DNA of 41,195 nucleotides from Patescibacteria group bacterium (GTDB lineage: Bacteria > Patescibacteriota > Minisyncoccia > UBA6257 > 2-01-FULL-56-20). Numbering within the stretch: position 1 is the first letter of the stretch; every line of letters begins with the position of its first letter. The notes under the pieces were generated by a model. It was not told the origin of the DNA and did not search any database. It saw nothing but the letters and a program-made list of their open reading frames with translations. Below are positions 9,120 to 10,660 of the stretch, piece after piece. The stretch covers positions 1 through 41,195 of the forward strand of contig JANWZH010000002.1 in assembly GCA_025054755.1 (NCBI GenBank), written 5' to 3'. Both the position numbers and the translations under genes were made by a program.

Positions 9120-10660
<1,541 letters not shown>

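Follow-up and report, generated by a model that had tools for sequence, protein, structure and literature searches.

The 16S rRNA of a tiny, uncultured Parcubacteria/Paceibacteria bacterium ends in a sequence that has no anti-Shine-Dalgarno (anti-SD) motif, and the same loss is found across a large clade of its relatives. Based on this gene, on the gene starts in the 41,195-nucleotide stretch of DNA that carries it (hereafter the window) and on related genomes and contigs, translation in this clade is likely to start without SD pairing, canonical or compensated, through leaderless transcripts, A/U-rich leaders and coupling between neighbouring genes. SD pairing is the textbook mode of start-codon selection in bacteria, and Parcubacteria are among the largest and least studied bacterial groups. 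Lineages without the rRNA half of the SD system can reveal the minimal alternative; moreover, gene finders that assume SD motifs may misplace start codons in Parcubacteria. The window is a well-bracketed example, in which the pre-rRNA processing stem is clean and the sequence has also been assembled independently. In its clade, canonical, intermediate and fully replaced tails coexist, which provides a natural series for the loss of the SD system. Leaderless-type promoters are common among its relatives, one of which, Minisyncoccus archaeiphilus, has a U-rich tail and is in culture, so that experiments are feasible. The novelty is modest, since the lineage-wide loss has already been published (PMC9297842). 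Here, we describe a conserved replacement tail, its intermediates and a leaderless-type promoter signal, for which we found no earlier description.

The 16S rRNA gene and its 3' end

The window contains one complete 16S rRNA gene. The features on which the analysis of its 3' end is based are as follows.

9122..10660, + strand: 16S rRNA gene, complete, 1539 nt (Rfam RF00177 covariance model)
10624..10647, + strand: helix 45 hairpin, CACGCGUAGC-GGAA-GCUGUGCGUG (covariance-model alignment, every pair formed)
10648..10660, + strand: single-stranded 3' tail, GAACAAUUAAAAU (gap-free against model positions 1521-1533)
10661..10776, + strand: 3' trailer hairpin, directly after the conserved tail (folding against shuffles)
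9032..9059, + strand: pre-16S leader/trailer processing stem, 5' strand (leader-trailer co-fold)
10777..10804, + strand: pre-16S processing stem, 3' strand (co-fold, about 28 continuous pairs with 9032-9059)
24372..24785, + strand: YbeY endoribonuclease gene (Pfam PF02130, E = 1.4e-17)

The gene is a full-length match to RF00177 (SSU_rRNA_bacteria), covering model positions 1-1533 with 1399.6 bits (gathering score 50); it is not truncated and has no insertions. It is isolated, as the Rfam scan of the 41-kb window found no 23S or 5S rRNA gene and, as other RNA genes, five tRNAs only. One rrs copy was seen in the 41 kb of the window and about 7 kb of further genome sequence. In bins of 2 kb, the GC content of the window ranges over about 22-35%; without the rRNA gene, it is about 25%.

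Helix 45 of the window has a sequence that is also found in many Parcubacteria 16S genes. The strand that follows it reads GAACA where a GAUCA-type sequence is expected from the covariance-model alignment. The Rfam consensus after helix 45 is GAUCACCUCCUUU, and at that place the window has GAACAAUUAAAAU. This segment aligns to model positions 1521-1533, GAUcACCUCCUUu, with zero gaps and top posterior probability, and AUUAA at 10653-10657 stands at the position of the CCUCC core. The tail is therefore devoid of the core that characterizes the anti-SD of bacterial SSU rRNA. The whole window was searched for CCTCC, which occurs at six sites (10129, 24486, 29103, 29165, 37143 and 38013) and is absent from 10661-10853, up to the next gene at 10854. 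An earlier sequence-only reading of this DNA had claimed that the 16S tail lacks CCUCC and that the motif is not simply displaced downstream. Both claims are borne out: the Rfam model alignment that this reading had proposed as a check, gap-free over the tail, yielded no CCUCC-containing tail, and there is no CCTCC between the 16S and the next gene. As judged from the sequence of their 16S gene, the ribosomes of the window organism have lost the anti-SD sequence.

It is extremely unlikely that the tail reflects an assembly or boundary error, that an anti-SD located downstream is joined to it by processing, or that another rrs copy supplies a normal anti-SD. In favour of such readings, CPR rRNA genes are known for insertions (PMC9297842), and the sequence covered is part of the genome, which may contain a second rrs copy with a normal tail. 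Such readings are opposed by the model alignment, which continues without gaps to its last position, by the insertion-free length of 1539 nt and by the missing CCTCC up to 10854. The RNA structure of the region also stands against them. The segment 10600-10830 folds with -64 kcal/mol, as compared with -34 +/- 3.9 kcal/mol for shuffles (z = -7.66). The trailer can be described as one long, very stable hairpin, nested within the 28-bp leader/trailer stem, which closes right behind it. Such a leader/trailer stem is the typical RNase III processing stem of pre-16S transcripts. A gene for RNase III is present in the same species, on contig L122 of assembly GCA_026413235.1. With the stem at 10777-10804 and the next gene at 10854, no room is left for a downstream anti-SD exon. 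Furthermore, contig L121 of GCA_026413235.1, which is an independent assembly of the same species and differs from the window by 15 mismatches in 13.3 kb (99.84% identity), has a tail and a trailer identical to those of the window. The same tail type occurs in more than 100 related genomes and contigs that show no pattern of displaced CCTCC downstream; when the DNA 3' of the 16S, up to 400 nt and farther, was searched in the window and 118 related loci, neither CCTCC nor longer anti-SD words gave consistent hits. Finally, ribosomes with a normal anti-SD would find no SD motifs in the genes of the window species, as described below.

Some additional observations concern the surroundings of the gene. 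A hairpin directly after the conserved tail also tends to occur in relatives. GCA_026413235.1 has shorter contigs than the window, and its contig L122 reaches about 5 kb beyond the 3' end of the window, with genes for RNase HII, L32, NusB, RNase III and SMC. YbeY is a nuclease that takes part in maturation of the 16S 3' end. Its gene lies in the order yqeY, ybeY, ftsA, ftsZ at 23935-26002 and overlaps yqeY by 4 nt at its start. Linkage of ybeY with era is a common arrangement elsewhere; era is not adjacent to ybeY in this segment.

A replacement tail and the clade that carries it

GTDB was scanned, with one genome per species, for AAGTCGTAACAAGG-N10-GGAA-N10-GANCA and, directly after it, a tail in which all four C's are missing, a design that leaves out C-containing tails. 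Such four-C-less tails were found in at least 120 species, nearly all of them Patescibacteria among the matches listed, which comprise Paceibacterota, Parcubacteria, Lipton-, Harrison-, Wolfe-, Jorgensen-, Colwell-, Staskawicz- and Nealsonbacteria as well as the cultured Minisyncoccus archaeiphilus. Outside Patescibacteria, the matches listed include a few known cases, e.g. Karelsulcia muelleri (L111). Four loci labelled Gastranaerophilales, Omnitrophota and Desulfosporosinus (L018, L044, L049 and L082) carry a Patescibacteria-type 16S helix 45 and tail, and their rRNA contigs are probably mis-binned.

The window 16S is about 80% identical over its full length to the closest of the matches listed. 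The best 16S matches among those listed are MAGs of Paceibacterota, Parcubacteria, Lipton-, Harrison- and Wolfebacteria, whose helix 45 is the same as in the window. In the window, the gene 3' of the 16S encodes a response regulator (start at 10854) and is followed by rplS, and this synteny is common to about 60 loci among the matches listed (L001-L120). The gene content of the window is also typical of the group, with type IV pilus genes, FtsH, FtsA/FtsZ and aminoacyl-tRNA synthetases. By its 16S similarity, the window organism is thus assigned to the Parcubacteria/Paceibacteria. The arrangement at 9122-11553, in which a 16S unlinked from the 23S is directly followed by the single-domain response regulator and rplS (L19), is conserved in Parcubacteria, at the majority of the type A loci and at some of the type B loci (the tail types are defined below). 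Elsewhere in the window, a 342-residue protein encoded at 35086-36114 combines an N-terminal sigma-70 region 4 with a HARE-HTH domain, which is unusual for a sigma-like factor. Exact-protein matches for the first and last open reading frames (ORFs) of the window were not found, probably owing to differing start calls.

From this distribution, the anti-SD loss is ancestral to a large clade and not private to the window genome. The sequence-only reading regarded outright loss as mostly a matter of a few highly reduced genomes. This view does not hold, as the loss is lineage-wide in part of the Parcubacteria, which was published in 2022 (PMC9297842), and the comparison with related genomes that the same reading had suggested reveals the same loss across the clade.

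Two types of tail, A and B, can be distinguished among the at least 120 genomes of the GTDB scan. Type A consists of the helix 45 of the window followed by GGAWCAAUUAAAYU. Type B, which includes Minisyncoccus, has a slightly different helix 45 followed by U-rich tails, GGAUCAUUUAUUUU and GGAUCAUUUUUUU. The rRNA copy number of Minisyncoccus is not stated in its description paper. Because type A was first defined by its tail, conservation measured on it was circular, and the measurement was redone on an unbiased sample of 120 metagenome contigs (L123-L242), for which the exact helix 45 of the window was the sole criterion. AAUUAAA-type tails (AAUUAAAYU) are present in about 63% of these contigs, and GGAUCAAUUAAACU accounts for 42 of the 120. 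One contig, L137, has the exact GGAACAAUUAAAAU of the window with a different trailer. Canonical CACCUCCUUU or GGAUCACCUCCUUU is retained in 4 of the 120, and the others are intermediates, e.g. CACCUCAUUU, CAUCUCCUUU, CACUACAUUU, CAAUUACACA and CAACUAAAUU. The contigs thereby display a full series, from canonical CACCUCCUUU via intermediates to CAAUUAAACU; a shorter, odd tail, GGAUUUUCUCCUAG, is seen in seven of them.

In the same sample, the information content is at least 1 bit through nucleotide 14 past helix 45, save for 0.60 bit at the C/U/A position, and it drops at once to 0.1-0.5 bit beyond nucleotide 14. Since conservation ends there, the mature 3' end of the 16S likely lies at about 10660, which would give the tail the same length as in E. 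coli. The conservation of the tail sequence in the helix-45 sample shows that the new sequence is under constraint. In this clade, as its 16S genes indicate, the anti-SD has been replaced by a conserved sequence and not simply decayed or randomised. Canonical CACCUCCUUU was probably eroded stepwise to CAAUUAAAYU, of which the window version is CAAUUAAAAU; the replacement tail has kept its length and is still under purifying selection. The conserved tail would most likely have a role other than SD pairing, e.g. in 3'-end maturation, subunit assembly or protein contacts.

A more specific proposal is that AAUUAAAYU is a selected functional element that succeeded the anti-SD in a large clade of Parcubacteria; it might, for instance, contact an initiation factor or ribosomal protein, or form a gate at the mRNA exit channel that is tuned to mRNAs of the leaderless and A/U-rich kinds. 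The clade is old, and both the sequence and the length of the tail are conserved over it, while simple mRNA complementarity is the one role that has been excluded; we regard the proposal as improbable. If true, it would mean that bacteria have a further, distinct regime of initiation. Pairing of the tail with the 16S 5' end (AGUUUGAU) was considered as well and rejected, as a chance-level 6 bp is left. In the clade with the tail AAUUAAACU, the 16S 5' end has AGGAUUUGAU, so that a G-C pair is broken and not compensated.

Upstream regions and the start of translation

Starts in the window were assigned by a crude rule, the first ATG that follows a stop, and 36 ORFs were used. None of these has AGGAG, GGAGG or AAGGA at -20..-1. 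The shorter words GGAG, GAGG and AGGA occur there in a single case, a 'ggag' before 18895, which lies within the 3' end of the preceding ORF. Even GGA, GAG or AGG is found in only 1 of the 36 upstream regions, as compared with 9 regions at -60..-41 and 12 when the first 20 nucleotides of the coding sequence are taken, which means that G is depleted near the starts and not enriched. Duplex energies were computed for a species set of 44 genes, composed of the 36 window ORFs and 8 genes from L121 and L122. When -20..-5 is paired with the canonical tail, the best duplexes have a mean of -0.79 kcal/mol, as compared with -0.81 kcal/mol for shuffled sequences; with the own tail the values are -1.35 and -1.21 kcal/mol. 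Duplexes of -3.45 kcal/mol or lower make up 5-7%, versus 4-6%. By the criterion of Lim et al. 2012 (PMC3457768), the upstream regions of these 44 genes thus show no affinity for the 16S tail above the background level. The sequence-only reading, which saw no SD motif before any called gene and placed the lone 'ggag' inside the preceding codons, was correct on both points.

The tail AAUUAAA(A/C)U could in principle act as an alternative anti-SD for an A/U-rich upstream motif (about AGUUUAAUUG or AUUUUAAUUG), a reading that we consider very unlikely. In its favour, members of a divergent clade share this tail, in length as well as in sequence, some organisms have been proposed to show binding although their CCUCC core is not conserved (PMC10783764), and words containing TAATT are enriched at -20..-1. 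This enrichment results from TATAAT followed by T(A), at the peak position of that hexamer (see below). When duplex energies of the real tail were compared with those of permuted tails, no positional dip appeared in the window (absolute z < 1.3) or in 279 type A genes. The G-containing complement words AGTTT, GTTTA, AATTG, ATTGA and TAATTG are not enriched, the mean own-tail energy given above differs little from that of shuffled sequences, and an all-A/U duplex of 5-8 bp has negligible energy. Neither words nor duplex energies, in the window and in relatives, revealed a positioned upstream mRNA motif complementary to the own tail (segment AAUUAAAAU), which argues that tail and mRNA do not form a compensated SD pair. 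An alternative SD was likewise rejected for type B, as it was for the window and type A, for lack of signal in word counts, positional profiles and permuted-tail duplex energies. Type B does show an energy dip at -6, which arises because CAU of the tail pairs with the AUG itself. In type B loci such as L016, a C-to-U change turns GAUCAC into GAUCAU, and the complementarity of this CAU to AUG is probably coincidental.

Among the hexamers found at -20..-1 in the relatives, TATAAT shows the strongest enrichment. A TANNNT or TATAAT element about 12 nt upstream of start codons has served as a computational criterion for leaderless genes (PMC3160421). We counted hexamers with at least 5 of 6 matches to TATAAT that start at -14..-12. 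In type A, 58 were observed versus 12.5 expected in 279 genes of the GTDB set, and 73 versus 15.3 in 363 genes of the metagenome set; in type B, 42 were observed versus 16.6 expected in 277 genes. For exact TATAAT at this position, the relatives have 45 versus 3.0 expected, and TACAAT, TATACT and TAGAAT are likewise enriched there. Where the hexamer lies at -12, T is found at -15 in 53% and G at -14 in 45%, which gives the extended -10 promoter, TGnTATAAT. With a -10 element at -12..-7 of the AUG, the transcription start falls on the AUG. The leaderless signature is present in about 20% of the genes of the relatives, with 3-5% at control offsets, and in about 23% where the upstream gap is at least 40 nt or the upstream gene is divergent.

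In the window itself, 8 TATAAT-like hexamers at -14..-12 were observed versus 4.0 expected (P about 0.05), which is suggestive and underpowered because TATAAT-like words are ubiquitous at 25% GC. The window has three candidate leaderless genes.

18013..18021, + strand: extended -10-like TGATATAAT, ending 6 nt before ATG 18028 (sequence reading; clade-wide peak position)
4273..4281, + strand: extended -10-like TGTTATTAT, ending 6 nt before ATG 4288 (sequence reading)
28509..28514, - strand: -10-like CATAAT at -12..-7 of gene 27465-28502 (sequence reading)

The starts of the window genes have other features in common. A is found at -3, in a Kozak-like manner, in 29 of the 36 genes (81%), versus a background of 43% (P = 5e-6); in the relatives, this preference is weaker, at 38-51%. 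The region -40..+29 has the lowest GC content (13-14%) and the weakest folding. Moreover, 15 of the 36 genes (42%) start no more than 15 nt from the preceding same-strand gene or overlap it, a packing that suggests termination-reinitiation, and translational coupling is likely for these 15 genes.

Initiation could also be mainly leadered and similar to that of Bacteroidia, with an A-rich, unstructured leader, S1 and a Kozak-like A at -3, and with leaderless genes as a minor class. We think of this as possible though on the whole doubtful. It agrees with the A at -3 in 81% of the window genes and with upstream regions that are A-rich, G-poor and minimally structured. The peak at the -10 position is not significant in the window alone, many -10-like boxes located 15-23 nt upstream point to short leaders, and the strict leaderless signature is confined to about 20% of the genes of the relatives. 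However, the extended -10 of the relatives is strong and sharply placed exactly where a leaderless transcript needs it, and the window contains textbook cases of the leaderless type at 18013-18021 and 4273-4281. In addition, CPR S1 proteins are shortened (PMC9297842). The leadered and leaderless modes are not mutually exclusive.

In the mixed mode that we favour, the first genes of transcription units would often have extended -10 promoters, with the transcript starting on the AUG or no more than about 3 nt away from it, and such leaderless mRNAs would be bound directly by the ribosome and initiator tRNA. Leadered genes would rely on a start region that is extremely rich in A/U, lacks structure and prefers A at -3, and tightly packed downstream genes would probably be reached through termination-reinitiation. 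The leaderless component is shown only statistically and mainly in the relatives, and we infer the transcript 5' ends. The sequence-only reading had proposed that translation starts entirely through unstructured A/U-rich or leaderless 5' ends. The A/U-rich, least structured starts are confirmed, and leaderless starts are supported in the relatives and suggested in the window; "entirely" is unproven, and coupling had not been considered.

The type B loci (L005, L007, L010, L016, L024, L053, L091, L096 and others) have a sharp peak of canonical SD words at -16..-9. AAGGAGG and similar words are found before 31 of 277 genes (about 11%), with 13 occurrences of AAGGAG versus 1.3 expected. The core of the type B 16S tails is C-less, and CCTCC is also missing downstream. 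The 31 SD-bearing genes are mutually unrelated and mostly accessory, and may be recent horizontal imports that kept their native SD. A rescue of SD pairing by G.U wobble with the U-rich type B tails was rejected, since the energy model gives no stabilisation. No SD-word peak of this kind exists in the type A relatives or in the window. The peak in type B, despite the lost anti-SD, indicates that anti-SD loss and SD-motif loss are not tied strictly to each other over the class. In contigs with canonical tails, SD words occur before 1 of 14 genes, and in those with partial tails before 5 of 69. The -10 position signal is also seen in a few contigs with canonical or partial tails. Together with the few SD words, this signal hints, in small numbers, that SD-independent initiation preceded the erosion of the anti-SD.

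Comparison with known systems

Tsurumaki, Saito, Tomita and Kanai (2022, RNA 28:1041) detected the anti-SD motif in only 48% of Parcubacteria (PMC9297842). The lineages without it overlap the group that lacks uL1, and bS21 is often absent in Parcubacteria (PMC9297842). The rplK-rplA region, where uL1 would be encoded, lies outside the window and outside contigs L121 and L122. The window, which is likewise without CCUCCU, represents the same phenomenon in, by 16S similarity, the same lineage. That study records motif detection only, and makes no mention of the AAUUAAAYU tail, the intermediates, the absence of an mRNA motif or the leaderless-type promoters. Most Paceibacteria are without Era, the assembly GTPase that binds GAUCACCUCC (PMC12641178, PMC10582724), which fits a relaxed constraint on the tail.

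The window resembles Bacteroidia in its A-rich, G-poor upstream regions, in the preference for A at -3 and in having very few SD motifs. In Flavobacterium johnsoniae, a Kozak-like A at -3 and an anti-SD sequestered by ribosomal proteins have reportedly been described by Baez et al. in 2019 and Jha et al. in 2021. SD-independent initiation of the Bacteroidia type is also mentioned in PMC10783764. Most Bacteroidia retain and hide CCUCC, whereas in the window the sequence itself is gone, so that it is not a case of a retained and silenced anti-SD. To our knowledge, leaderless-type promoter spacing has not been described as a feature of Bacteroidia. The bacteria known to be rich in leaderless genes are Actinobacteria and Deinococcus-Thermus (Zheng et al. 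2011, PMC3160421). Actinobacteria and Deinococcus retain a functional anti-SD, and SD motifs for their remaining genes, whereas the clade of the window has none. Mammalian mitochondrial SSU rRNA is also without an anti-SD (PMC10582724).

Lim, Furuta and Kobayashi (2012) examined 1,182 genomes and found the motif to be missing from 15, which belong to Flavobacteriia, insect symbionts and haemotropic mycoplasmas and show binding at background level (PMC3457768). Here as there, the genomes are AT-rich and reduced, CCUCC has disappeared through changes of C to U or A, there is no G-rich upstream signal, and the duplex between tail and upstream region, at about -1 kcal/mol, equals background. The tails of those groups are diverse and degenerate even within a group. 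In contrast, the present clade consists of free-standing environmental bacteria, and one sequence has been kept across this large and old clade.
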